The position numbers and the translations under genes are program-made. From a virus (Duplodnaviria; Caudoviricetes), in the IMG/VR virus record IMGVR_UViG_3300027874_000004, positions 1 to 43,523 of that record: a stretch of 43,523 nucleotides of DNA. One strand, written 5' to 3'. The number at the start of each line of letters is the position of its first letter. Position 1 is the stretch's first letter. The notes under the pieces are model-generated. The model made no database searches, had not been told where the DNA came from, and worked only from the letters and a program-made list of their open reading frames with translations. Below, piece by piece: positions 1-42,931 of this stretch.

Positions 1-99
1 GGCTACCTGATGCGCCTGGCGGCCGAGCGGATAACCGGCGAGCCGCAGGAACGCTACAGCAATGCCCGCATGCGCCAGGGCAAAGAGCTGGAAGCCGAG
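1..99 (+). repeat. 99-bp terminal overlap, copy 1 (circularisation)
   Basis: Identical to 43425-43523. Confidence 0.97.
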
Positions 100-543
100 G
101 CGCGCGATCTCTACGCCTATCTGGAAAGCGTGAGGTGCGGCGGCGATCTGATCGAGCCGCAGCTCGTCGGGCTGATCAAGAACGGAATCGCCGGCTATTC
201 GCCCGATGGGCTGATCGGCGACTGCGGGCTGCTCGAGATCAAGACCCTGATCCCGCCGCTGATGGTCGGCCTCTTGAGCCAGGGCGGCTACCCGCCCGAG
301 CACAAGGCACAGCTCCAGGGCGGCCTCTGGGTCAGCAACCGGGGCTGGATTGATTTTGTCGGCTACTGGCCCGGCATGCCGCTGCATGTCGTCAGGGTCG
401 GGCGCGACGAGGATTACATCGCCGAATTGAGCAACGAGGTCGAACGGTTCGCCGCCGAGCTGGACGACGTTGTGCGCCGGGTCGGCATCAGCCCCAAGGC
501 AGCGCTGCGCGACATGATGGAGAGCAGCCTGGAGGTGCTTTGA
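1..543 (+). CDS. YqaJ/lambda-exonuclease family protein, C-terminal part (gene starts at GTG 43305 across the junction)
   Basis: Motifs M..G..LE..AR..Y, GYSPDGL, LLEIK, QLQGGLW, DFVGY; frame continuous with 43305-43523. Confidence 0.92.
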   Translation, partial: GYLMRLAAERITGEPQERYSNARMRQGKELEAEARDLYAYLESVRCGGDLIEPQLVGLIKNGIAGYSPDGLIGDCGLLEIKTLIPPLMVGLLSQGGYPPEHKAQLQGGLWVSNRGWIDFVGYWPGMPLHVVRVGRDEDYIAELSNEVERFAAELDDVVRRVGISPKAALRDMMESSLEVL

Positions 544-1457: not shown

Positions 1458-1821
1458 CGACGATATTGCGACAGCGGTCTGCAATTCGCCGAAATACTGC
1501 GCTATCGCCCAAACGGTCTACCGTCAGCTCGACCTGCCGATCGGGCGCGTGCGCGTGACCACGGCAGGCGTTTCGATCAGGAAAGGGGAATACCGCTACT
1601 ATTACCGGGTGCCACATCGCGCCTGCGTTCTCGTCCACGATTTCGACGAGGGCAGATCGGTGAAGCCGATCGCCTTCACGCTGACGCTGTCCGACCGGCG
1701 CAAGATCCAGTCCGTCCTCGATGATCGCCGGCAGCAGGTGAACAAGGCCCGCCGCGCGCGCGAGCAAGCCATGCGAGCAGTTGGCGGCAAGCCGAAAGTC
1801 TACAAGCGCTATGGCATCTGA
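1450..1821 (+). CDS. Hypothetical protein
   Basis: ATG 1450 overlaps previous gene end; operon context. Confidence 0.65.
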   Translation: MISDDIATAVCNSPKYCAIAQTVYRQLDLPIGRVRVTTAGVSIRKGEYRYYYRVPHRACVLVHDFDEGRSVKPIAFTLTLSDRRKIQSVLDDRRQQVNKARRAREQAMRAVGGKPKVYKRYGI

Positions 1822-2311
1822 GCCGCTTTGGTTTCGCTGGAATGGATCGGCGATGATGCCGATGCGGCCCGATGCTGCAGCGCACCAGTATGTCGTCGAC
1901 CAGCGTTACCTGCTCGAGGCGCATCACGAGCGCAGCTATGCTCGGCATCGGGCGTATTTCGCGGCGCTGCACGCAGCCTGGTCGAGCCTGGCGACCGACG
2001 ATTTCCCGACCAGCGAGCATCTGCGCAAGTTCGCGTTGATCCGCACCGGCTGGCGCGACGAGCGCATGTTCGCGTGCCATGATCTGCAAGAGGCGATGCG
2101 CCTGCAGGCCTTTGTGCGGCCGATGGATGACTACGCAATCGTCACCATCGACCATCCGGCCCTGGTGCGCGTCTGGACGGCTAAATCGCAATCGTACAAG
2201 GCCATGGGCCGACCGGATTTCAACCAATCGATGGAAGACGTGTTGACCTACTGCGCCAGCCTGATCGGCGTCACCAAGGACGAGTTGCAGGCCCAGGGGG
2301 AATTAGCATGA
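1811..2311 (+). CDS. NinB/DUF1367-like recombination accessory protein
   Basis: RS...HR.YFA, EHLRKFALI..G, AKSQSYKAM...DF..S.EDVL pattern; lies in ERF/YqaJ operon. Confidence 0.7.
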   Translation: MASEPLWFRWNGSAMMPMRPDAAAHQYVVDQRYLLEAHHERSYARHRAYFAALHAAWSSLATDDFPTSEHLRKFALIRTGWRDERMFACHDLQEAMRLQAFVRPMDDYAIVTIDHPALVRVWTAKSQSYKAMGRPDFNQSMEDVLTYCASLIGVTKDELQAQGELA

Positions 2312-3344: not shown

Positions 3345-4615
3345 GCCGGCACTACCCCGAGATCACCAACTGGCGGGATCTCCCGCACCTGCAGCTCCCG
3401 ACCGTGGGCAGCACCGAATACCACTACGTTCGCGGCAAGGGCCAGCAGCGCTTCGGCTCGGGCAGCCTGCACAAATTCGGCGAGGCCGGCTCACCGGCCT
3501 GGATTGCCGAATACGACGCGCGGGTCGACGCGCTGAAGGCGAGCGCCGCCGATGTCGAGGCGATGCATTCGGGCCGCAAGGTGATCGGAAAAAAAAGGTT
3601 GGCCCCAACCGCGCCAGGCTCGCTCGGGCACGCGGTTGAGGCCTATCTGGTTTCCGACGATTTCACCAAAAGCCGGCAATTCGCGGCCAAGAGCACGCGC
3701 GGCATGAAGACCGACATCCTGCGCCGCTGGTGCAAGGAGCCGGTCGAGGCAGGCTCGAGCGATGTCTGGGGCCAGGCGCCGATCGCCGAGATCGATGCCG
3801 AGGCCCTGGAAGGGCTGCTGCTCAGCTACAAGAACACGCACGGCAAGGCGCGCAATTTCCGCGCCGCGATCCGGCCGTTCTACGCCTGGCTCTACGAGCG
3901 CAAGATGATCCCGACCCGCGATAAGGACGGCAAGCGGATCATCAACCCGACCCTGCTGCTGCAGGTGCCGAAACGGCCGGAAGACGCCGGCCTGCGCCCG
4001 CTGACCGCCGACGAGCTGAAGGCTTGCCAGCGGACCTGGGCGCCGGGCACCTACGAGCGCGCCGCGGTCGAGCTGATGTTCCAGCTCGGGCCGGCATGCG
4101 CCGACGTGATCCGGCTCGGGCCGGCGAACGTGAAGACCGACCGCGACGGCAACCGGGTCTGCGCCTATCACCGGCAGAAGATCCGCAATCCCAACAAGGG
4201 CAACGCCTACCCGCCGTTCCGCAGCAGCCTGGAGGATCACTTCCTCAAGACGCTGCCGGTGCAGCCGCTGCCGGGGATGCCCTGGCTACTCGACAAGAAC
4301 GGCCGGCCCTGGACCGACCGCAAGGACGCCGCCAACGAATTCAGCAAATGGGTGATCCGCCGGGTGCTGGGCAAGGCGGGCGTCGTTGACGGGTCGGCGC
4401 ACGGGTTCCGCAAGCTGTCGGCGATCGAAGCCGCCTACCGCAAGATGGACCTCTGGCAGATGAAGTCGGTCTTCGGTTGGGACACACTGGCGATGCCGAG
4501 CTACTACACCCAGCTCGCCAATGCGATGCGCTTCGGGTTCCAGGCGGCGAACGATTTCGCCGATGGCTGGGAGCCGGAAGACGACGACGAGGCGGTTGTT
4601 AAAACCGGGGAATAG
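3299..4615 (+). CDS. int: Tyrosine recombinase/integrase
   Basis: HGFRK (HxxR), FGW, YYT; box I reads LGPACADVIRLG with no Arg at the expected position. Confidence 0.9.
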   Translation: MEQQIETGHPAAAQLSRHYPEITNWRDLPHLQLPTVGSTEYHYVRGKGQQRFGSGSLHKFGEAGSPAWIAEYDARVDALKASAADVEAMHSGRKVIGKKRLAPTAPGSLGHAVEAYLVSDDFTKSRQFAAKSTRGMKTDILRRWCKEPVEAGSSDVWGQAPIAEIDAEALEGLLLSYKNTHGKARNFRAAIRPFYAWLYERKMIPTRDKDGKRIINPTLLLQVPKRPEDAGLRPLTADELKACQRTWAPGTYERAAVELMFQLGPACADVIRLGPANVKTDRDGNRVCAYHRQKIRNPNKGNAYPPFRSSLEDHFLKTLPVQPLPGMPWLLDKNGRPWTDRKDAANEFSKWVIRRVLGKAGVVDGSAHGFRKLSAIEAAYRKMDLWQMKSVFGWDTLAMPSYYTQLANAMRFGFQAANDFADGWEPEDDDEAVVKTGE

Positions 4616-11231: not shown

Positions 11232-12929
11232 TTACCTCTGCAGCGCTTTCGGATAATCGACGTACTGGTAGCCGTCCGCATCGCGCAGGACGGCATCGGG
11301 GCGGATGCGCTCGACCTCGTCGGCCATGACGCCGATCGCGTAGTTGTTGGTGCCGGCGTAGCGGAACCAGTAGAGCGGCAGCCCGTTGTCGGCGGTGCCG
11401 ATCCGCTTGATGTCGGTCTTGAACCGCCGGTCTGATCCGAAAAGGCCGGCCAGCGGGCCGCTGCCGCCAAAGAGGTTGGCGAACGACGCGATGCCGCCCA
11501 GGCCACTGCCGACGCTCTGCAGGATGTTCTGCTGGTTCGGGCTGGTGACGCTCTGGCTGCCGCCGGTCGGGCCGCCCAGGATCGCGCTGTAGTTTTGCAG
11601 CGGCTGCCAGATGCTGTTATAGGCAGCGCTCATCTGGCTCAGCGGGAAATCGGCGAACTGCGGCGCGTTCTGCACCAGATTGCCCAGTGTCAGTTGGCCG
11701 CTGTTGTTGAGCTGACCGGCGTTGTTGGCGATGGCGCCGCCGATCTGGTAGCCGGAATTACCGATCTGACCGGCGTTGCCGAGGCCCGACAATTGGGTGC
11801 TGATGCCGCTGAGGCCGAGGTTGCCGCCGGCACCGTAGGCGGTATTCGCGGCGCCGTAGCCGGTGCCGGCGAGGTTGTTCAGGTCGAGCGCTCCGCCCTG
11901 GATCAGATTGCCGCCCGTGGTGAAGCCCTGGTTGGTGATGTTGGCAGCGTTGTTGACGCCGGTCTGGCCGAGGCCGCCGGCCGCAGTGAGCGCGCCCGTG
12001 GTATTGGCAACGCCGGTATTGTAGGCGCCAGCGCCCGCGTTGCCGGCGCTGAGTGTTGTGCTCAGCCCCGTGTTGTAAGCATTGTTTACGATGTTGCCGA
12101 CCGTGTTCTGCAGCGCCTGGCCGAGGTTGTAGCCGGCGATGTTCTGCTGGTTGCCCATGACGCCCGAGCCGTACCTGCCGGCCTGCTCGGCGCTGGAGCT
12201 GATCATCGGCGCCGTTGCCGTCATAAACGCATTGGTGATCGGCGTGGTCGCGGCGCTGATGACGTTGCCGAGCGCCGGGTTGGTATTGGGGTTGATGTAC
12301 TGGCCCGAGGCCAGGCCCTGCAGGCCGCTCATAAACGGGTTGCCGCTGACCGCTCCAGCCGCATTCGTGTTGAGGCCGGCGATTTGCGGATTGGCGACGC
12401 TTGCCGCGCCGGGCGCATAGCCGCCGATCGCGCCCATCGCCTCGCCGCCCAGGCCTTGCATCTCGCTTGAGTAGCCGTAGCCGGTGCCCGGCAGACTCAT
12501 CGCGCTGTTGCCGACGCCACTCAGCGCCGACTGCCAGGGCGCCACTGCGCCCGGTGCGGCACCGGACACATTGGTCATCAGATCCTGCATGTTGAAAGCG
12601 TTTTGCACCGCATTCGGCGCCAGGCCAGAGAGGTAGCCGGCCTGCGGGCTGGCGGCATAGTAGGGCGTGCCCTGGCCCGTCAGCATCGCGTTCTCTGCGA
12701 TGCTGGCGAACGGCATAACATTGTAGCCGCCGTATTGAGGGGCGAGGAAATTGTTGGTGTCGGCCTGCGCCGTGTCGGCCAGTTGCGAAAGGTACGACAT
12801 CCCGGCGGCGGGATAACCAGCGAGGCCCGCCAGGCCCTGGGCCTGCTGCCAGCCGCTCGTCAGGAACGGGAGCTGCGCCTGCGATACCGGATTGACCGTG
12901 GTGACGGTCGACGGCGAGGATTTGCTCAT
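11232..12929 (-). CDS. Pilot/DNA-transfer-like protein with C-terminal peptidase S74-like domain
   Basis: Start MSKSSPSTVTT with ATGA overlap; G/N/Q/A-rich body; SDRRFKTDI..GVMADEV..VDY. Confidence 0.8.
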   Translation of the reverse strand: MSKSSPSTVTTVNPVSQAQLPFLTSGWQQAQGLAGLAGYPAAGMSYLSQLADTAQADTNNFLAPQYGGYNVMPFASIAENAMLTGQGTPYYAASPQAGYLSGLAPNAVQNAFNMQDLMTNVSGAAPGAVAPWQSALSGVGNSAMSLPGTGYGYSSEMQGLGGEAMGAIGGYAPGAASVANPQIAGLNTNAAGAVSGNPFMSGLQGLASGQYINPNTNPALGNVISAATTPITNAFMTATAPMISSSAEQAGRYGSGVMGNQQNIAGYNLGQALQNTVGNIVNNAYNTGLSTTLSAGNAGAGAYNTGVANTTGALTAAGGLGQTGVNNAANITNQGFTTGGNLIQGGALDLNNLAGTGYGAANTAYGAGGNLGLSGISTQLSGLGNAGQIGNSGYQIGGAIANNAGQLNNSGQLTLGNLVQNAPQFADFPLSQMSAAYNSIWQPLQNYSAILGGPTGGSQSVTSPNQQNILQSVGSGLGGIASFANLFGGSGPLAGLFGSDRRFKTDIKRIGTADNGLPLYWFRYAGTNNYAIGVMADEVERIRPDAVLRDADGYQYVDYPKALQR

Positions 12930-13375
12930 TCCTTGATCCTTCGCACCAGGGCGACGCCGCAGACGTCGAACCCGAAATGCGACCAGCCCTTGCGGTCCCA
13001 GCCGACGAGGTCGACGCAGCCGAGGGCCTCGGCCTGGGCGTCGAGCGCATCGAGGAGCTGCTGCCACCAGCGCTTGAGGCCGCTGCCGGCGATGAACGGC
13101 ACCTCCAGCACGCGGCAGCGCGGGAATTGCCTGACCTCTGTCACCGCCGCTGCGACCAGGGCGCCGCGGTCGCGGATGACGAACATCGTCATGCGGCCGG
13201 CCATGACGAGCTGCAGGATGTCGATCGGCTCATAGCCGCGGACGCGATCGGTGGCGCGCTTCAGGCGCGGCTCGATGATCGGCCAGAGGCGCAGCAGCTC
13301 ATCGAGCGGCGGCGCGCTGATGACAATATCCGGCAGCTCGCCGACCGGCGGCGGTGCCGAGACAAAATCCAGCAT
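12926..13375 (-). CDS. GNAT-like virion assembly protein (P22 gp14-like position)
   Basis: AAVTEV..FP..RVL....AG..L..W....A.A.GC....GW.RKGW pattern; synteny. Confidence 0.65.
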   Translation of the reverse strand: MLDFVSAPPPVGELPDIVISAPPLDELLRLWPIIEPRLKRATDRVRGYEPIDILQLVMAGRMTMFVIRDRGALVAAAVTEVRQFPRCRVLEVPFIAGSGLKRWWQQLLDALDAQAEALGCVDLVGWDRKGWSHFGFDVCGVALVRRIKE

Positions 13376-18277: not shown

Positions 18278-18563
18278 TGGGCGCGTATCCCATCTGGGCG
18301 AGGAGGGCGGTGACAGCGTCGGCCTGTTTCTGCAGCGCCGAGGCCAGGGCGTCGAGCACGGCCGGGTCATCGACCGGCGGGTTGAGCGTGACGCCGGTCT
18401 GCATCGACATGCCCGATGTCGCCGGCTGCGCGACCGTCACCGCATTGACCGAGCCGCCGGCATTGACGATCGCGATCGCGGTGTTGAGCGTCGCGAGCTG
18501 CTGCTGGAGCTGAGAGGCCTGCGGGATCTGGTCAATGGTCGGCGGGTCGCTGGATGCGGGCAT
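18261..18563 (-). CDS. Hypothetical protein, possible tail-fibre accessory
   Basis: TGATG coupling, GGAGAG RBS. Confidence 0.65.
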   Translation of the reverse strand: MPASSDPPTIDQIPQASQLQQQLATLNTAIAIVNAGGSVNAVTVAQPATSGMSMQTGVTLNPPVDDPAVLDALASALQKQADAVTALLAQMGYAPSARRK

Positions 18564-20503
18564 CAGGCTCTCTCCAATTGTTCCAGGCGCGTCGACATTT
18601 CCTGCACTGCCTTCCACAGGACGGCGACAAGCTCGTTGTAGTTGAGACCGTGGCTGTCGACCCTGGCAGCGTCCTCTGGCCCTGGCCCAAAGCGGTCGCC
18701 GACGCGATAGTGCTCATAGCCGCCAAAGTTGTGACCGGCGCGCTCCATCACCTCGCCGACGTCCTGGGCGATGAAGCCCCAATGCATCTTGCCGTCTGGC
18801 CCATCACGCCAGCGGAACCGCTGCGGAGTGATCTCGTTGACCAGACCGAGACAGTCAGGCAGATCGGCTATGTTGGTCTTTTTGTTGCGGTCGGAGGCGG
18901 TGAAGAATTGGTAGGAGGCAACCCTGTACCAACTTGTGCCCCAGGCATCGACGCCGCACCACCAGTTATTGTCAACCTCGGGCGCGATGTGTTGGTGAAC
19001 GTAGAGGGCGCTCGCCGCGTGCAGGTAGACATTCCTGCTGCCGTCTGGCTGTATCCACACCTGGTTGTCGTTGCCGATACCGATCATCCCGTGCTGGGTT
19101 CCGCCTGTGTCGGCGGAACAATAGTAACTGTTGTTCGGCATGTAGATCTGGTTGCCCATATACAGCTGGCCGCTGATATAGGTGTTGGTGCTGACGCTGT
19201 TGCCTAAATGGATGACGCCGCCGCAATCCCATTGAATGTAGGTGCCGCCGCCGTTCTTGCCCTGCAGAACGATGTTGGAGCTGTCGCTCCGAATACTGGG
19301 CCAGCCCTGATCGATGTTGTTGTTGCCGGCAAAGTAGAGCCGGTTGCCGTCGCTGCCGTTGTGGATATAGAGCGAGTAGCTGCTGTTGACGCCAACATTC
19401 ATCTGGCCGCGAGCGGCGATGTTCTGGCCGCTGTTTGCCTGCAGCCAAAGCGTGGTGCCCGAGTCGATATGCCCGTTGCCGTCATCGTAGATGCGCACAT
19501 AGTCGCCGCTGCCGGCCCCGTTCCAGATGATCAGGCCCTTATTTGCGCTTGAATTATAAAGGTTGAGTTCCGGGCCGGCGTCGTAGACGGCATCGAGCCG
19601 AGCGCCGTGATACCACTTGAAGTTTTGGTTTACCGGCACCGAATGCCACAGCCCCCCGTTCTCCATACCGATGGCGTAGTCAACGTTACTCCCATCTCCC
19701 CAGAGCTGTATTCTGGTGCCGACCGATCGCGCGCTGGTGCTGGGCGGCGCGATGCCGTTGTTACCGAATGAAATGTAGTTGCCGGCGGCGTTGCTGATGA
19801 TGAGCTGCGGTGCGCTGCTGCTCGCGGTGACGGGGCCGGCGAGGTTGATTGCCCCGGCGGGATCGATCCACAGCCGCGTAGCCGGTGCCGAGGTGCCGGT
19901 AACGAAATACATTGCGCCGCCTGCGTCGGCGCCGATCCCGGCGTAGTTTGTCGCACTGGCGTTGTAGAGCAACAGATTGGTGTTGGCGTTGGTCGGCGCG
20001 GAATAGCTGCCGGCATTGGAACCGATGCGGTTGCCCTGGGCGGTCAGTGTCAGGGGCGAGCCGTAGGTGCCGCTCCACTGGATCGTGTTCGGCGTTGTGC
20101 CGGTGTTGATCGTGATGCCGGCGCCGGCCTGATAGCTCGATGCCCCAGCCGGGCCGGTCGCGCCGGTAGCCCCAGTCGGGCCGGCAGGCCCTGTGGCGCC
20201 CGTTGGACCGATCGGGCCAGTCGCGCCGACCGGGCCGGTCGCGCCGGTTACACCGATTGGCCCCTGCGGGCCTGTCGCGCCCGTTGGGCCAGTGGCGCCC
20301 GTTGGACCGATCGGGCCAGTGGCGCCCGTTGGACCGATCGGGCCAGCCGGGCCAGTGGCACCGGGAGGCCCCTGCGGGCCGGTGCCGGCCGGCACCGATC
20401 GCCAGGTCTGACCCGGATCGTCCCAGAACGCCAGCATGTCGCTGCTGGTCGGAACGATGTAGGCAGGGATTGCCGCCAGGGCGCCGGCAACGGGAGTGCT
20501 CAT
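18563..20503 (-). CDS. Tail fibre with collagen-like repeat and C-terminal S74 chaperone
   Basis: GPT/GAT Gly-X-Y repeats; [33 protein letters not shown]. Confidence 0.88.
20150..20385 (-). repeat. Collagen-like Gly-X-Y coding repeat with 27-bp units
   Basis: gggccagtggcgcccgttggaccgatc tandem copies. Confidence 0.85.
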
Positions 20504-20715
20504 GCGGCCGGATCGAGACCGTTCATTGTCGGCGCGGCGGCGGCGGCGGCCGGCCCTGGCGCGAACGCATCAGGCACCGTTGCCGCAACCTGCTGCTGCA
20601 GCTTGGCGATGAGCTGCGCCACAACCTCATAGGGCGCCTTGGCGAGCGCGCCCATGATGACGTTGTATTCGGCGGCGGTGATGCTCAGCGCCAGCTCTTG
20701 ATTGGCGTCGATCAT
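20500..20715 (-). CDS. Small tail-fibre-associated protein
   Basis: [22 protein letters not shown]; ATGA overlaps on both sides. Confidence 0.7.
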
Positions 20716-22415
20716 TTGTTCTCCAGCTTGTCGGCGAGCTGCTGCACCGCCCGCAGGAGGTACGGCACCAGGGCCTTGAGGTTGATGGCGCGCAGATCAT
20801 TGAATTGCCCGACCGCTTCCGGCACCAGGTCTTCCAGCTCCTGGGCGACCAGGCCGATCGGCACGCGCCAGCCCGGCCAGCGGGTCTCGTCGGTGTACTC
20901 AAAAGCCCGCACCGGCACGCGGCGCAGGAGATCGAGCGCGTCGATGTCGCTGTCGGCGATGCCGCGCTTCACCCGTGCGTCGGAAATCTGATCGACCCAG
21001 ATGGCAAAGAGGTTGTTGGCAAAGTCGTTGCCATTGAGCACGTCGCCGGTCGGGCCGGCACCGCTGCTGGCGTAGGCGAGGTTCTTGCAGTTGGTCGTGG
21101 TGCAGGCGTAAGCGTTCGGAATGTTCATGTGAATGCCGTTGCTGTCGCTGGTGAAGTACAGCCCGCTCCCGCTCCCGGTCGCCAGGATCGGCGGCCCGCC
21201 GCTGCCCCCGTAATACCAGCCGCCGCAATGGACATCGTTCTGGTTGTAGACGACACCGTTCAGCGAAATGCTGTGGTTGCCGTTCGGCCCGATCCAGATC
21301 TGATTGTCATTGCCCATGCCGATCAGGCCGATGCCGGTGCCGCCGGTATCCTGACCGTAGTAATATTGGTTGTTGGAGATCACCACGGCGTGGCCCTGGA
21401 CGGTCAGGTTGCCGCTGGTGACGGTCAGGTAGGCGATCGAGCCGCCACTCACCGGAACGTAATTGCCGAGGTCGCTTCCGGTAGCTATTGCGCCAACACC
21501 TGTGCCATCGACGAACCCTAAAATATGCGAACCATTCCAAGTAAAACCGACGTGGTTGCTGCCGCCGACACCGTTGTATTGAATGCCGGTGCCGCCGACC
21601 AGCATCGCCTGGGGAGCGGTCACTGTGCCGCCGGTCGCGCTGAGCGCGAGTGTGTTGTTGGTGTAGAAATTGAGCACGCCATCGCTCGGGCTGAACATCC
21701 CCGTGTCGTAGCTGCCATCGCCGATAAAACTGTACCCGTGACCGTTGGGGCCGCCCTCGCTGGCGATGATTTTCCCGGTCGCAGAAACATCGCCGGTTAC
21801 GCCGAGGCCGGCGCCGACCGTCAGCCCGCCGGTCACCGCGCCGCCGCTCGTCGGCAAATAGCCGGGGATGGTCGAGCTGCCGCTGACGGTCAGGCTGCCG
21901 CCGATCGAGACATTGCCCGGCACGCTGATGCCGCCGCTGCCGTTTTGGGTGATCGGCAGAAACGGGTTCTGGAGCAGGAAACCGCCGGCACCGCCGTTGA
22001 GGCTCTGCACATAGACGAGCTGCGGGTGCGTGTTGGCCGGGATGTCGCCGGCCGCGACAGCGGCAAAGGTGCCGCCCGATGCCGCCTTGTAGATCCCCTT
22101 CGCGCCGAGCGTATTGACCTGAAACGTGTCGCTGCCGACCGATGCGCCGGCTGCCTTGAACGAATACCGCTCGCCCTCGACGTAGGCGGTCGGGTAGGTG
22201 GTGTTGCTGGTAGCGAGCGTATAGGCGCCGCTGGCGGGCGTCACCGTGCTCACCGGGTTGATCCGGTCCCAGAAGCGCTTCAGCGCGCCCATGTTGGCGC
22301 GGGCGCAATCGTTGACCGTCGACGGCATCTGGCCCTCGGGCCAGCCGTTGGGCGGACCCTGGATGTTGCCGCCGTCCAGCTCAAACCAATTGGCGTTGTC
22401 GGAGATGTCGGGCAT
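20712..22415 (-). CDS. Tail fibre/spike with N-terminal anchor and C-terminal S74 chaperone
   Basis: GWPEGQMPSTVNDCARA anchor; SDARVKRGI..IGLVAQELE..LVPYLLRAVQQL. Confidence 0.85.
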   Translation of the reverse strand: MPDISDNANWFELDGGNIQGPPNGWPEGQMPSTVNDCARANMGALKRFWDRINPVSTVTPASGAYTLATSNTTYPTAYVEGERYSFKAAGASVGSDTFQVNTLGAKGIYKAASGGTFAAVAAGDIPANTHPQLVYVQSLNGGAGGFLLQNPFLPITQNGSGGISVPGNVSIGGSLTVSGSSTIPGYLPTSGGAVTGGLTVGAGLGVTGDVSATGKIIASEGGPNGHGYSFIGDGSYDTGMFSPSDGVLNFYTNNTLALSATGGTVTAPQAMLVGGTGIQYNGVGGSNHVGFTWNGSHILGFVDGTGVGAIATGSDLGNYVPVSGGSIAYLTVTSGNLTVQGHAVVISNNQYYYGQDTGGTGIGLIGMGNDNQIWIGPNGNHSISLNGVVYNQNDVHCGGWYYGGSGGPPILATGSGSGLYFTSDSNGIHMNIPNAYACTTTNCKNLAYASSGAGPTGDVLNGNDFANNLFAIWVDQISDARVKRGIADSDIDALDLLRRVPVRAFEYTDETRWPGWRVPIGLVAQELEDLVPEAVGQFNDLRAINLKALVPYLLRAVQQLADKLENK

Positions 22416-22436
22416 GGGCAAACATCCTGCGGATGT

Positions 22437-22497
22437 AAAAAGCGGCGGCCCGCGAATACCTGTCACCGGGAGGTTCGGCAGGTAGGCGGGCCGCCGC
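22437..22497 (-). terminator. Long hairpin plus U-tract after the capsid gene
   Basis: 12-bp GCGGCGGCCCGC/GCGGGCCGCCGC stem followed by TTTTT on the minus strand. Confidence 0.65.
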
Positions 22498-22540: not shown

Positions 22541-23143
22541 TTAGGTGAGATCGGCGCAGAGACCGGAGCCGGCTTCGTTGCGGGCGGTGAGCGTGTACTC
22601 GCCGACCAGCATTTTCTTTTCGTTGTCACCCGTTTTCGCCAGCTCAACGAGGTTGATCGGTCGCAACCAGGCGAGGCCCCAGAGGTCGCTGTTGAGGATC
22701 AGGGCGTCGCGCTGCCGCATAAAGCGGTCAGGCTTCACCTCGACCGAGCCAAAATCGTAGACATACACGTCGATCGAGGTCACCAACTTCTCTTCGTCGG
22801 CGTTGATGTACCTCGTATTGTTGCCCTGGAACGCCGAGAGCGCGACCTTCTGGTTGCTGTTGACCAGCACCTGATCGGGTTCGTCACCGCTGTTCTGCCA
22901 GACCGAGGCGAGCACGGTCTTCAGCATGGTTTCGGTAAACGCCGCTTGCGTCCCATCGGTGCGGGCATTGGTGCCATCACCAACAGGATTGGCGCCGCCG
23001 GCTCCCATCGACGTGTTGGTCTTGATCCATGCAAGAACAGAAGCAGCCAACGCCGCCGTCGCGCCGACGGTGCCGGCCGAGCGGGCCTGGTTCTGGAGCA
23101 GGATCGTTTCGATGTCGCGCTTGAGCGACTTGCCTTTTTTAGC
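22541..23143 (-). CDS. Major capsid protein (SU10/DUF5309-type), exon 2 (200 aa)
   Basis: AKKGKSLKRDIE ... DFG ... LAKTGDNEK..LVGEYTL..RNE; in frame with exon 1 after intron removal. Confidence 0.92.
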   Translation of the reverse strand, partial: AKKGKSLKRDIETILLQNQARSAGTVGATAALAASVLAWIKTNTSMGAGGANPVGDGTNARTDGTQAAFTETMLKTVLASVWQNSGDEPDQVLVNSNQKVALSAFQGNNTRYINADEEKLVTSIDVYVYDFGSVEVKPDRFMRQRDALILNSDLWGLAWLRPINLVELAKTGDNEKKMLVGEYTLTARNEAGSGLCADLT

Positions 23144-23390
23144 CGATTTGTTATCGCGCGGCTCTTTATCCGCGCTTCTGCCGGTTACCCGGCAGTCCAG
23201 ACTATATCATCACCTCTTTCGAGGGCCGGGCGCTCGTGGGCGGGTTATTGTTTCCTCACCGCCTAGTCGTTGAACCGTCCGCGCCCCTGGGCCTGGGCTT
23301 ACATGCGCGGCTTGGCTGCTGATTGTCCTCGGCATCACCCGGTCGGATGTTCCAGCAATTCACCCGGTTTAGTCAGGTCCGCTAATGCCA
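23144..23390 (-). ncRNA. Group I self-splicing intron, 247 nt, no internal ORF
   Basis: P (AATTGCTGGAA), Q (AATCAGCAG), R (GTTCAACGACTA), S (ATGATATAGTC); P1 TCAGGTT/GACCTGA with U.G at the splice site; P10 TTAGC/GCTAA; terminal G at 23144. Confidence 0.95.
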
Positions 23391-23735
23391 AACCTGATAG
23401 CCGATTTCGCTCTTCCGGCCCGCCTTATTGACGGCTTCCTCGGTCATCGCAATGATCACGGTCTTACGCGAGATCTGGGTGTAATTGCCCCTGCGGACGG
23501 TCGGCACAACGGCATCGAACGCACTGATGTCGTCGCCCTGGATCTGAGCATTGCTGCCGTTAGGAGTCTCGAGCACATCGGTCTGCCATTCGTGGTAGAC
23601 CGCGGTTGCTTTCTCCCTCGCGATCGCCGTCATAAACGGCGTTTCAGTCGGGCTGATGTTGTAGATAATGTCGCTCAGGTCTTCTCTGAGACCCACAGCG
23701 CTGTAGGTGGTGAACGTATTCGTAAGCAAAGCCAT
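23391..23735 (-). CDS. Major capsid protein, exon 1 (115 aa; spliced product 315 aa)
   Basis: GLREDLSDIIYNISPTETPF, HEWQTD, NYTQI, AGRKSE..YQ. Confidence 0.92.
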
Positions 23736-23779: not shown

Positions 23780-24886
23780 TTAGGGAAGAAGTTCGGCAAT
23801 GAGCGAACCGGCATCGCGCGCACTGTTCGTGCGACCCAACCGATTGACCGCTGCCTTGATCCTGGCCTGCGGGCCGGCCTGGTCGCCGTCCTGGCTGGTG
23901 CCAGGGCGACGAACCTGGGCCGGGGCGTTGTTCCGTTTGGCGTCTGCCGCCGCGGCGTTGGTGAGCTGCCGGTCGTACAGCATTGCCTTCGTCGCCAGCA
24001 CAACGAGCCGGTGATCGTAGGCCTTGCTGATTTCGTCCGGTGAAAACCCGCCCGTGTCGCGAAGGTAGGTGCTCAAATCCTTGCGGAGCTGGGCGCCTTT
24101 GGTCTCGTCGCCGAAATCGGGCATCTTCTCGTTGAGCGAGACATGCTCGCGGGCGACGTGATCGGCGAGCTGCTGCGCCTGCTGCTGTGCAACATGCGCC
24201 TGGAGCTGCGCCTGGCCCTGCTGGAACTCGGCCTCGATGGCGCCGAGCCGGGACCGCATCTGCTCACGTAATGCGTGCAGCCGGGTGTATTCGGCTGGCG
24301 ATTGCGCTTGCACCGCGACCCAGTCGACATTTGCAAGCTGGGCCGCCTCGGGGGCGGCCAGGTGCAACATCTTCTGCAGGCCGGTCAGGTACTCGGTTCG
24401 GAGGGCCACAGCGGCCTGGCGCTCGCCTTCAAAGGCTCTGCGGGTCTCGGCCGCCTCTTGGCTGGATCGGGTAAGCGCGGCCTCACGCTGGCTCTCTCGC
24501 CGGACAACGGTCTGCTGCAGGGCGGGTGGGAGCTGCTGAAACGCGGCTTTGTCGTCTGCTGACCACGATCGCGGCGGCTCGATGGCAGCGGCCTTGTCGG
24601 CCTGCTGTTCGGTCTTGTCGCGATCGTCTTCCCTGATGGGCGGCTTTTCGTCCGCTTCAGGCTCCGATGGCGAGCCATCGGTATCCTTGTCGGGCGCCGG
24701 GGGAGGCGCCTTGTCGTCACCGTCGTTGAACAGCAGCCCGGCAATGGCATCGCCGGCCGACCGCGTATCGGTAACGGTGTAGCTTTTGTCGCCGCCAGCG
24801 GGCGCGCTGGTATCGTGCCCATTCGGCTGCGGCGGGGGCGGGGTCGGCGCAGCCGGCTCGGCTGCCGCGACGTGTGTCTCGGACAT
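23780..24886 (-). CDS. Scaffolding protein
   Basis: Acidic Pro-rich N-terminus, PPRSW, DW....QSPAEY, DHRLV..A.KAMLYD; directly upstream of capsid. Confidence 0.8.
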   Translation of the reverse strand: MSETHVAAAEPAAPTPPPPQPNGHDTSAPAGGDKSYTVTDTRSAGDAIAGLLFNDGDDKAPPPAPDKDTDGSPSEPEADEKPPIREDDRDKTEQQADKAAAIEPPRSWSADDKAAFQQLPPALQQTVVRRESQREAALTRSSQEAAETRRAFEGERQAAVALRTEYLTGLQKMLHLAAPEAAQLANVDWVAVQAQSPAEYTRLHALREQMRSRLGAIEAEFQQGQAQLQAHVAQQQAQQLADHVAREHVSLNEKMPDFGDETKGAQLRKDLSTYLRDTGGFSPDEISKAYDHRLVVLATKAMLYDRQLTNAAAADAKRNNAPAQVRRPGTSQDGDQAGPQARIKAAVNRLGRTNSARDAGSLIAELLP

Positions 24887-33261: not shown

Positions 33262-33720
33262 TTAAGCCTTTGATTTTCCTCGCTTTGCCGATGTTCCCTT
33301 AGCATCTGGCGCGGTCGGCTCATCCTCGATCAGGCGCGGATTCGCCTCGACCTGGGCGAGCTGGTCAACGCTCGTAACCTGTTGATATTGCCCATCTATC
33401 TGCGGCGCATCGCTGAACCGCAGCACCTGCACCGTGATCGGCGCCTCGGAATTGCCCGAGATCTCAAGGGCTTGCATGTCAGGAAGCACTTTCCTAAGCA
33501 ACGCGAGCCCAACCATAGCTTGTGTGCGCGTCAAGCGCGCCGAGCGCGGATTATCGGGGTCATCCTTGGCAAAATCCTGAAGCCTCGTAATGAGAACTCG
33601 GGTTTGGATGAGATTACGGAGGTTTATGAGGTTTTGCGGCGAGGGCGCGCGATTGATTGGAACGCGTCGGTCGTGTGGTGTGAGCGGTTTAGGTGCTCTG
33701 ATTGCGGCGTGCTTGGGCAC
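33262..33720 (-). CDS. terS: Terminase small subunit
   Basis: IQTRVLITRLQDFA ... TQA...ALLRKVLPDMQALEISG pattern. Confidence 0.75.
   Translation of the reverse strand: MPKHAAIRAPKPLTPHDRRVPINRAPSPQNLINLRNLIQTRVLITRLQDFAKDDPDNPRSARLTRTQAMVGLALLRKVLPDMQALEISGNSEAPITVQVLRFSDAPQIDGQYQQVTSVDQLAQVEANPRLIEDEPTAPDAKGTSAKRGKSKA
33263..33275 (-). promoter_or_regulatory. IHF consensus site at the terS 3' end
   Basis: Reverse strand AATCAAAGGCTTA matches WATCAANNNNTTR. Confidence 0.5.
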
Positions 33721-33940
33721 TGCGCTGTCTCCATTGTGCCCAGATTGGCAGACCTAGCCCACGGTTCCTGCGATAGCTCTCGCGTGCGGCGCGGTTGCGG
33801 CATTCAAGGCAGCGCTTGTCGTATCCCGCTCGATTGTTGAGGCCGCCATTATCGGTGCGGCGCTCTTTGATCCAGGGAAACGCGCTCAGCGGCAGCTCGC
33901 GTTTGCAGCGGCTGCAGATTTTGGTGCGCTCTTCTGGCAT
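33689..33940 (-). CDS. Small Zn-finger protein
   Basis: KICSRCKRELPLSAF ... CLECR, resembling the N-terminal Zn domain of HNH/EndoVII nucleases without a nuclease domain. Confidence 0.65.
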   Translation of the reverse strand: MPEERTKICSRCKRELPLSAFPWIKERRTDNGGLNNRAGYDKRCLECRNRAARESYRRNRGLGLPIWAQWRQRSAQARRNQST

Positions 33941-33966
33941 GTGTGGCGCCGTGCTATGTTGCTGGT

Positions 33967-34140
33967 GTGAACAAGCGCTCGCCAACCATCCGCGTCATCT
34001 TCATCGATGACCGCACCGACGAGATCGTTGATGTCGAGCTGCGCCGGTCAGAGGCGGTCGAGGTCTACCGTATTCTGCAGCGCTGCCTCAGCAAAAGCGA
34101 GCGGAGCAAAGCCAGACCAAAGGAGGGATGCCGATGCTAG
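33967..34140 (+). CDS. Hypothetical protein
   Basis: First ORF of a coupled plus-strand cluster; start uncertain. Confidence 0.5.
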   Translation: MNKRSPTIRVIFIDDRTDEIVDVELRRSEAVEVYRILQRCLSKSERSKARPKEGCRC

Positions 34141-42038: not shown

Positions 42039-42170
42039 ATGCAAGCTGGTCTCGCAAACCTGCTCACAACGGTCGCGCTGACAGAACGGCGTCCTGCTAG
42101 GAGCTGGCTCGGGCTTTCGCTCTACGTCCTGCTCGCCTGCGCGGTGCTCGCGATCGGAGCGCTGCTGTGA
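42039..42170 (+). CDS. Small membrane peptide (43 aa, not in ORF track)
   Basis: GGGAGG RBS; C-terminal TM WLGLSLYVLLACAVLAIGALL; GTGA overlap with erf. Confidence 0.6.
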   Translation: MQAGLANLLTTVALTERRPARSWLGLSLYVLLACAVLAIGALL

Positions 42171-42931
42171 GCGACGATGATCTGCCGTACGGCCCGACGC
42201 CAGGGCCGATCGTAAAATTGCCGCCGCCAGACGCCCAGGTGACGCTGCTCGACGTGATCAGCCGGGCCGCGAGCGATCCCAATACCGATGTCGACAAATT
42301 AGAGCGGCTGGTCGCGCTGTACGAGCGCAGCCAGGCCCGCGACGCGCACGCGGCCTACACCGCGGCCCTGGCGGTAATGCAGCCGCTGCTGCCGGAGATC
42401 GAGGAACACGGCGAGATCCTCGACAAGCAGGGCCAGGTGCAGAGCACATACGCGCTGTGGGAGGACGTTCAGCGCGAGATCAAGCCGATCCTGGCTGAGC
42501 ACGGCTTCGCGCTCACCTTCGCGATCGGCAAGCTCGACGACGGCAGGCTGACCGTCACCGGCAAGCTGGCGCACCGCGGCGGCCATGTCGAGGAGACCAC
42601 GATCCCGCTGCCGCTGGATACGACCGGCAGCAAGAACACAGTCCAGGCCTACGGCAGCAGCACCAGCTACGGCATGCGCTACACGGCCAGGGCGCTCTTG
42701 AATCTGACCAGCCGCGGCGGCGACGACGACGGCCAGGCCGGCGGCACCAAGCTGCTCAGCGAGGGCGAGGTCGAGGCGCTGACCAAGCTGATCGAGGCCG
42801 GCAAGATCGACCTGGCCCGCTTCTGCGAGCACCTCAAGGTGCCCAGCCTCGACCAGCTCCCGGCGCGCCGGTTCAAGTACGCCGAGCAGGCGCTGCGCGA
42901 CGCCATTCGCAACCGGGAGCAAAAACGATGA
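42167..42931 (+). CDS. erf: ERF-family single-strand annealing protein
   Basis: YA..ED....IKPIL.EHG, L.H.GGH, QAYGSSTSYG.RY, DDDG. Confidence 0.92.
   Translation: MSDDDLPYGPTPGPIVKLPPPDAQVTLLDVISRAASDPNTDVDKLERLVALYERSQARDAHAAYTAALAVMQPLLPEIEEHGEILDKQGQVQSTYALWEDVQREIKPILAEHGFALTFAIGKLDDGRLTVTGKLAHRGGHVEETTIPLPLDTTGSKNTVQAYGSSTSYGMRYTARALLNLTSRGGDDDGQAGGTKLLSEGEVEALTKLIEAGKIDLARFCEHLKVPSLDQLPARRFKYAEQALRDAIRNREQKR

Follow-up and report, generated by a model that had tools for sequence, protein, structure and literature searches.

The major capsid gene of the phage studied here is split on its minus strand by 247 nt, and this raises the questions of whether the insertion is a genuine group I intron, how it came to lie in a capsid gene and whether it serves the phage in any way. 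We analysed the locus within its window, by which we mean the whole stretch of 43,523 nt, a complete phage genome (43.5 kb) with direct repeats at its termini. Our main reading, to which we give a probability of about three in four, has two parts: the insertion is a group I intron without an ORF, predicted to self-splice and leave a frame for a 315-residue capsid protein; and this intron is, most likely, a selfish and near-neutral relic whose sequence was probably assembled through recombination between introns at different sites of one gene family.

The major capsid gene and its insertion

The window encodes a portal, scaffold, capsid and adaptor of the SU10 type, an integrase-like gene and Erf, RecE/YqaJ-like and NinB-like genes; the Erf-like, RecE/YqaJ-like and NinB/Orf-like genes together are a phage recombination module (Table 1). 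Public runs that contain window DNA are soil metagenomes, with no RNA run listed among them, which bears on splicing in neither direction, and relatives of the capsid protein at 40–54% identity come largely from Bradyrhizobium, Xanthobacteraceae and other Alphaproteobacteria (among the best 80 of 113 loci). Because the integrase-like gene, the hosts of the capsid relatives and the soil runs all point that way, the window is likely a temperate soil phage whose host we infer to be an alphaproteobacterium. Among 50,697 cultured-phage records, the best capsid match is 47.5% identical, and none matches more than 28% of the length of the intron. Away from the capsid gene, Peptidase_S74, an intramolecular chaperone domain, ends three window genes (11232–13067, 18563–20503 and 20712–22466), of which one has further matches to profiles for DNA ejection and virion proteins, and one lies directly after the capsid gene. 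A scan of the window for promoters and terminators gave nothing informative.

The interrupted gene starts at 23735 and has a frame of 315 codons once 23390–23144 is removed. Its Pfam SU10_MCP match and its portal-scaffold-capsid-adaptor context identify it as an SU10-type major capsid gene, in the same family as the SU10-type / LUZ24-like major capsid proteins (Pfam PF17236, PHROG 1328; PDB 9ny2 and 7z45). The preliminary description had read the insertion as splitting this gene, and we found that the two exons together cover SU10_MCP without a gap and tile PHROG 1328 in the same way. The insertion follows Val115, the third codon of the intron is an in-frame stop and the unspliced frame ends after 117 aa. 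We reproduced the coordinates, the length of 247 nt, the junction, the 315-aa spliced frame and the 117-aa unspliced stop, and gene callers yield the broken gene that had been foreseen, as a 117-aa stub and a 169-aa fragment.

The group I assignment had been made from helices, with a covariance model named as the check. RF00028 matches positions 23400–23178 of the minus strand over the full model length (73.9 bits against a gathering score of 50; E = 4.6e-17), and this is the sole gathering-level Rfam match in the window and the sole RF00028 match in the genome. The region is identical in contigs of two runs from the probable source sample, which are two independent assemblies, and a run of another study has both intron ends, unchanged. 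Because the same sequence recurs in these runs, the intron sequence is not an assembly slip. No endonuclease ORF fits within the intron, stops occur in every forward frame and P2 is absent, all as first described. Two candidate endonuclease remnants, start and stop codons in the P6a loop and a purine-rich P7.1 loop, were rejected, both being conserved family structure. To call the intron minimal, as was done at the outset, is fair at 247 nt, but the size is unexceptional: ORF-less relatives of 241–294 nt occur in the same gene family. These results confirm 23390–23144 as a real group I intron in the major capsid gene, with splicing predicted.

Table 1. Positions of the intron, its segments, the capsid exons and other genes in the window
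Feature	Position	Strand	Remarks
Group I intron, 247 nt	23144..23390	-	no ORF, no P2; terminal G 23144; RF00028 73.9 bits
Internal guide sequence	23373..23385	-	7-bp P1 with exon 1 ending in U.G; 5-bp P10 with exon 2
P7 pseudoknot	23199..23270	-	guanosine-binding pair G23268-C23200 intact (Rfam alignment)
Backbone P3-P4-P6/P6a-P7-P7.1-P3'	23226..23367	-	codon-22 family; tree support 96/97
P5 segment	23323..23351	-	codon-30 type; 90–97% identical to 13 codon-30 introns
3' domain J8/7-P7'-P9.0-P9-P9.1	23149..23211	-	63 nt identical to codon-30 intron of L017
Exon 1, major capsid gene	23391..23735	-	codons 1–115, last Val115; Pfam SU10_MCP 3–109, E 9e-33; phrog_1328 3–119
Final base of exon 1	23391	-	U of P1 U.G pair
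Exon 2, major capsid gene	22541..23143	-	codons 116–315 and stop; SU10_MCP 110–292, E 8e-53; phrog_1328 120–307
Head scaffolding gene, upstream of capsid gene	23780..24886	-	phrog_3927, E 2e-27
Erf-like single-strand annealing protein	42167..42931	+	Pfam ERF, E 5e-14
RecE/YqaJ-like exonuclease	10–543		PHROG matches
NinB/Orf-like gene	1781–2311		PHROG matches

We compared 184 related capsid loci (30 + 74 + 80, the last being the best 80 of 113) after six same-contig repeats were dropped; near-duplicates are frequent, and 145 full-length rows reduce to 87 at 90% identity. In 181 of the 184, the alignment runs in one piece over codons 105–119, the other three loci end before the site, and none of the 184 has an intron at codon 115. 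The survey of SU10 capsid genes proposed in the preliminary description thus gave homologues contiguous across the junction, and relative to these intronless alleles the intron is a discrete insertion. The closest uninterrupted relative (L001) has a capsid protein 90.5% identical to that of the spliced window, and RF00028 has no match in any of five close genomes, four of them 99–100% complete.

An exact junction pattern retrieved 100 stretches from the viral collection, none with a capsid or intron match. A metagenome scan with a P5 pattern retrieved nine, eight of them at codon 30 and one (L187) that was identical to the window and hence not an independent carrier at codon 115. Other candidates for the same site map to codons 113 (L157/L159), 117 (L146), 116 (L379) and 120 (L062). 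Prokaryote genomes scanned with exon 2 gave no match; the loci from such genomes came from an alignment query.

In one run, X5, intron-bearing contigs (depth 3.4–4.0) have no differences from the window, and there is also a 153-nt intronless contig (depth 3.5) with one difference in 122 exon-1 letters. This contig differs from the window at positions –1, +3 and +6 from the junction, where it has the letters of the intronless majority; against L001 it aligns over 147 letters with no gap and 21 differences, the number expected for an intronless allele. Because the three positions are those of P1/P10 and the changes are synonymous, the contig is an allele at the DNA level rather than a copy of spliced RNA. 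It is a single contig that extends 30 letters past the junction (against a bar of 31), in a run that also holds a second strain about 90% alike, and on this footing it is suggestive of an intronless sibling that shares soil sample X5 with the intron allele.

Catalytic core and splice sites

We found every stem that had been listed for the intron, but two labels were wrong. In standard group I numbering, P4 is UGCUGG/UCAGCA, one pair shorter at its outer end than first drawn, and the stem first called P6 is P6a, the true P6 being GCC/GGU. The intron has the P3-P7 pseudoknot with its guanosine-binding pair and the P4-P5-P6 domain. We aligned 37 core pairs from the window on 24 cores (the window and 23 of 26 short candidates) and found that 96.4% of the 888 cells are paired and that 21 of the 37 pairs have changes on both sides. 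None of 500 shuffles scored as high, and slid pairings reached 30–41%. By stem, pairing over the 24 relatives is 94.6% for P3 and 100% for P4, P6 and P7, with compensatory changes; the motif that fetched the cores fixed the P5 base and parts of P4 and P6, where invariant columns carry no weight, and left P3, P7 and P9 free. The guanosine-binding G-C of P7 is invariant in all 24 cores, and the minimum free energy fold of the intron has z = –2.6. By these measures the structure of the intron appears to be under selection, with an intact and covarying catalytic core.

One extra stem of 5 bp lies between P7 and P3' (23263–23239), as in subgroup IA, and it has a covaried form in the codon-30 family. 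Subgroup IA2 has both P7.1 and P7.2. The window intron has a single stem and a 6-nt linker, as against two stems in L062, L099 and L157, and it is IA-like and not IA2, a placement judged on stems and scored with the general RF00028 model. The earlier assignment, IA-like with one P7.1 stem, stands.

The junction cannot simply be read off, because with its U-rich and G-rich ends the intron could also be shifted by one base and stay in frame. The distance from the wobble G to P3 is 11 nt at the junction given in Table 1 and in six of six P2-less comparators, and would be 12 nt for the next base. In P9.0, two bases after P7' pair with the two before G23144, and this works only if 23144 is the last base of the intron. 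Residue 116 is Ala in 17 of 17 close intronless relatives. An automatic junction scorer had preferred a shift of one base, which gives Ser116; it was rejected because the P3 spacing, P9.0 and the conserved Ala116 speak for the other site. The intron then has a P1 U.G pair at its 5' splice site and, at its 3' end, a terminal G with P9.0. Where the window has the wobble U, 15 of the 17 relatives have C, and the U at +3 that P10 uses is found in none of them; the exon letters of the window fit the guide sequence.

P10 forms its five Watson-Crick pairs with the 3' exon only if one G is bulged, a shift of one base in register; pairing is continuous in 14 of 15 comparators (one of the 14, L145, with a doubtful P1 pick). 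P1 contains two adjacent U.G pairs (23379–23391), the second one base further in. A cut at the second would leave a perfect helix but remove 246 nt and end the protein at residue 117, and the first splicing step should favour the site in Table 1. P1 and P10 are without covariation support because no second codon-115 carrier was found.

With this architecture, ribosomes would halt at the in-frame stop just inside the intron and be kept out of the core, and the RNA would then fold. Attack by free guanosine bound in P7 would come directly after 23391, the U of the U.G pair. P9.0 would hold the terminal G, which would then take the place of the guanosine; P10 with its bulged G would align exon 2, and the exons would be joined.

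Related introns and the ancestry of the segments

Among 104 viral capsid loci, ten are split elsewhere than at codon 115, and motif scans added more. The mapped insertion codons include 22 (two phases), 30, 48, 113, 116, 117, 120, 240, 242, 244 and 245 (two phases). Most of these sites have an RF00028 match, and two to four introns occur in single capsid genes (L188, L146 and L140). A general core motif found 69 loci, 21 of which belong to the SU10-type capsid family. Insertion sites lie in more conserved stretches than random sites (p = 0.001, with five clusters picked by hand), but the window's own site lies at the median and we give the trend no weight. New here is that introns are found at a dozen or more positions within the SU10-type capsid gene family.

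The relatives vary in content. SU10-type capsid genes in L146 (1372–2632) and L140 (1102–2849) have three and four RF00028 matches, and the L146 type occurs in six contigs. The codon-30 site has both an ORF-less form (L015, 276 nt) and an HNH-carrying form (L017, 917 nt), which is the usual gain-and-loss pattern of homing introns. In L017 (490–1406), a 264-aa ORF with HNH and zinc-finger parts starts before P3, crosses the P3-P7 core with no stop and ends in a P7.1 insertion, so that the RNA of the core is also coding; to judge by their length, other codon-30 introns are built alike. The ORF-less codon-30 introns of L015 (2015–2290) and L188 (1425–1745) keep different remnants in P2 and P7.1 and look like separate deletion products of the HNH-bearing form. 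L188 (1075–1430) also has a 24-nt micro-exon between its codon-22 and codon-30 introns, and the upstream one keeps a short cysteine-rich ORF remnant before P3. Related ORF-less introns in L379 (625–894) and L382 (1364–1631) lie one codon downstream of the window's site, with the last four exon letters as in the window and matching guide letters. The codon-240 intron of L024 (3379–4105) has an ORF with a LAGLIDADG-like motif by eye, no Pfam match and one PHROG match labelled HNH. A close relative, L004, has a tRNA match on the opposite strand right after its capsid gene (3592–3664), and an alphaproteobacterial capsid gene in L225 shifts frame near codon 246 with no insertion (2731–2732), by frameshift or sequencing error.

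The closest whole-intron relative of the window is the HNH-carrying codon-22 intron of L381 (84% over 226 nt). In the backbone, the P3 and P4 strands are 100% identical to L381 and P6-P6a is 79% identical, and P3 and P4 are 66–72% identical to codon-30 introns. A tree of P3, P4, P6-P6a, P7 and P7.1 places the window with codon-22 and codon-116 introns (96/97), apart from codon-30 introns (100/99); its members were fetched by a P7.1 motif, and P3 and P4 were not part of that motif. P5 is of the codon-30 type and is only 28–76% identical to eight relatives of the window's own backbone family; some of the 13 introns that it resembles were fetched by a P5 motif, but not L015, L017, L145, L148, L152, L165 and L170. 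The 3' domain is exact over 63 nt with L017, 98% identical to L015 and 65–81% identical to the 19 other relatives compared, whereas the host exons of the window and L017 share 75% identity and no exact match longer than 21 nt.

We compared the window and L017 with another codon-30 intron in triplets. In the 5' core L017 sides with the other intron (11–12 sites against 1–3), and in the 3' domain it sides with the window (13–25 against 0–1). This flip occurs in 11 of 11 comparisons (p ≤ 2e-5), which share sequences and are not independent. A second pair of references, the codon-22 intron of L188 and L015, gives a switch for the window at J8/7, from 14:1 to 2:14 (p = 7e-6). The codon-22 and codon-30 families do meet: one gene, in L188, has introns of both, separated by 24 nt. 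Taken together, these data suggest that the intron is likely a mosaic formed by recombination with introns at other sites of the same gene family.

The intron could instead be real but not mosaic, the pattern arising from rate differences, convergence in short stems or chimeric assembly. The segments tested are short (29–75 nt), the motifs used to retrieve several of the relatives fix P5 or P7.1, the key fork of the 3' tree is weak (80/97) and stems can converge. The 63 identical bases span P9 and P9.1, which are far less alike among the other 19 relatives, and the host exons share no such run of identity. The window intron is in one piece in both assemblies of its sample, and the 3' domain is the same in L015 and L017, two contigs that are separate. 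We regard a non-mosaic origin as unlikely.

For the mosaic intron, the direction of exchange can be read from the 3' tree, which is discordant with the backbone tree. There the shared domain falls with the codon-22 introns, and the window's lineage is therefore more likely to have given the 3' domain to L015/L017 than to have received it; for P5 it would be the recipient. A wider picture, for and against which we find the odds evenly poised, is of the capsid gene as a ribozyme breeding ground, in which introns at a dozen or more sites would swap domains via the phage's own annealing recombinase; the window intron would be a natural two-way chimera at a new site, and its tandem U.G pairs might give an out-of-frame product. 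Reportedly, Bryk and Belfort 1990 observed domain shuffling between T4 introns at different sites in the laboratory. Both would be exchanges of domains between related introns, that of the window a natural one, read from sequence.

History, function and known systems

In the history that we consider most likely, an ancestor of the codon-22 family with an HNH gene between P1 and P3 would have come to codon 115 and lost both the HNH gene and P2. P5 would have been taken from a codon-30 intron, and the 3' domain would be shared with the codon-30 lineage of L015/L017. The Erf/RecE-like recombination genes are a plausible agent of the swap, via conserved core stretches. L381, L372 and L017 have HNH genes between P1 and P3. 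The window intron encodes no homing endonuclease, and HNH, HNH_3, LAGLIDADG_3 and GIY-YIG have no match in the window genome. Because no second carrier at codon 115 was found, we can only infer an HNH-bearing ancestor at that site.

An intron that is still mobile, either by homing in trans through the nuclease of a co-infecting phage or by recent reverse splicing directed by its guide, is a distinctly poor prospect. It would account for the related ORF-less intron 3 nt away, after codon 116, which shares four exon-end letters and four guide letters with the window, and for intron-plus and intron-minus alleles, different at –1, +3 and +6, that apparently occur together in sample X5, and trans homing is known in T4 (PMC2988022, in the part that we cite). 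It sits badly with a genome that has no match to the four endonuclease families and with the single carrier found at codon 115. A small zinc-finger ORF (33689–33985) was considered as a trans-acting nuclease and set aside: it matches only the N-terminal parts of HNH/endonuclease VII PHROG profiles, has no Pfam match and no visible catalytic part, and has a homologue in one of five relatives, an intronless one.

Besides a neutral relic, the preliminary description had raised the possibility of a late checkpoint, a domesticated intron in which guanosine, Mg2+ or translation state gates splicing and with it capsid synthesis. The phage cannot do without its capsid gene, which would have to be spliced; a sensor role for phage introns is printed as an unproven hypothesis in the part of PMC11878797 cited here; and in other group I introns of bacteria, splicing is affected by translation of the exon upstream (PMC3073962, as excerpted). 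Close relatives make the same capsid with no intron and would have to manage without any such checkpoint; 181 of 184 related loci lack the intron, and four near-complete close genomes have no group I intron at all. The insertion sites of the family are sporadic and scattered over at least 12 other positions, and no riboswitch, other Rfam family or other sensor element was found in or beside the intron. We consider a checkpoint very improbable. The neutral relic fits, with close relatives intronless and insertion sites many and sporadic, and this distribution suggests that the intron is near-neutral. A capsid pseudogene, with splicing lost or mainly out of frame, as the P10 register and the alternative 246-nt excision might hint, is scarcely credible in a complete genome with end repeats, with both exons intact and about 90% identical to an uninterrupted relative and all catalytic positions conserved.

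As a capsid-gene intron, the locus is one more case of a published kind and useful mainly for annotation. Its added value is evolutionary, as the routes of group I introns to new sites and natural domain shuffling are open questions, and related introns at known sites of one conserved gene, the 63-base block and the X5 pair make both testable. Because its two wobble pairs are adjacent, this GC-rich ribozyme of 247 nt also offers a simple substrate on which splice-site fidelity can be assayed. Capsid-gene introns are already published for LittleE, Tuc2009 and crAss-like phages, and the many-site family and the mosaic structure are new here. Our literature searches, which covered main texts, turned up the precedents cited here but neither this intron family nor a natural exchange of domains among introns in capsid genes. 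The contrast first drawn with 'classic' phage introns was overstated: spliced introns of capsid and tail genes, one of them ORF-less, appear in the portions of PMC3706429 and PMC7886860 that we draw on. A 2025 paper calls the preference for nucleotide and DNA metabolism genes apparent and unexplained (PMC12350094, in part), and short group I introns are described as abundant in gut jumbo phages and partly shown to splice (PMC12880540, in the sections used).

According to the same portions of PMC7886860 (Yutin et al. 2021), crAss-like phages have group I introns in capsid genes, with up to four gaps in one. The SU10-type family resembles them in carrying such introns at several sites per major capsid gene. 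The crAss-like cases were found via intron-encoded protein domains in large gut phages, whereas the window intron is ORF-less and lies in a 43.5-kb, probably temperate soil phage. The P1-P10 architecture, the stem between P7 and P3' and the early in-frame stop are shared with phage IA introns of T4 td and the Bastillevirinae as excerpted from PMC3984707 and PMC11878797, and a stop that keeps ribosomes off the core is a common feature (PMC3073962, likewise in part). Unlike those introns, the window intron has one P7.1 stem, no P7.2 and no P2. PMC11878797 also notes introns that match one subgroup model in their 5' part and another in their 3' part, and the window mosaic resembles them.

The nearest parallel is in mycobacteriophages, as described in the parts of Pope et al. 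2013 (PMC3706429) that we cite, whose introduction also mentions a capsid gene intron in the lactococcal phage Tuc2009. The major capsid intron of LittleE (819 bp, with an endonuclease gene) was shown to splice by RT-PCR and N-terminal sequencing, and BAKA and Optimus have a tail gene intron, that of BAKA being 265 bp without an endonuclease. The window intron is like those of LittleE and BAKA in interrupting a virion gene, with a U before it and a G at its end. Unlike that of LittleE, it is ORF-less and belongs to another phage group and another capsid family. The LittleE and BAKA introns share a 156-bp segment with 98% identity although they lie in different genes, whereas the shared blocks of the window intron are internal domains (P5 and P9-P9.1) that trace to two intron families located elsewhere in one gene.
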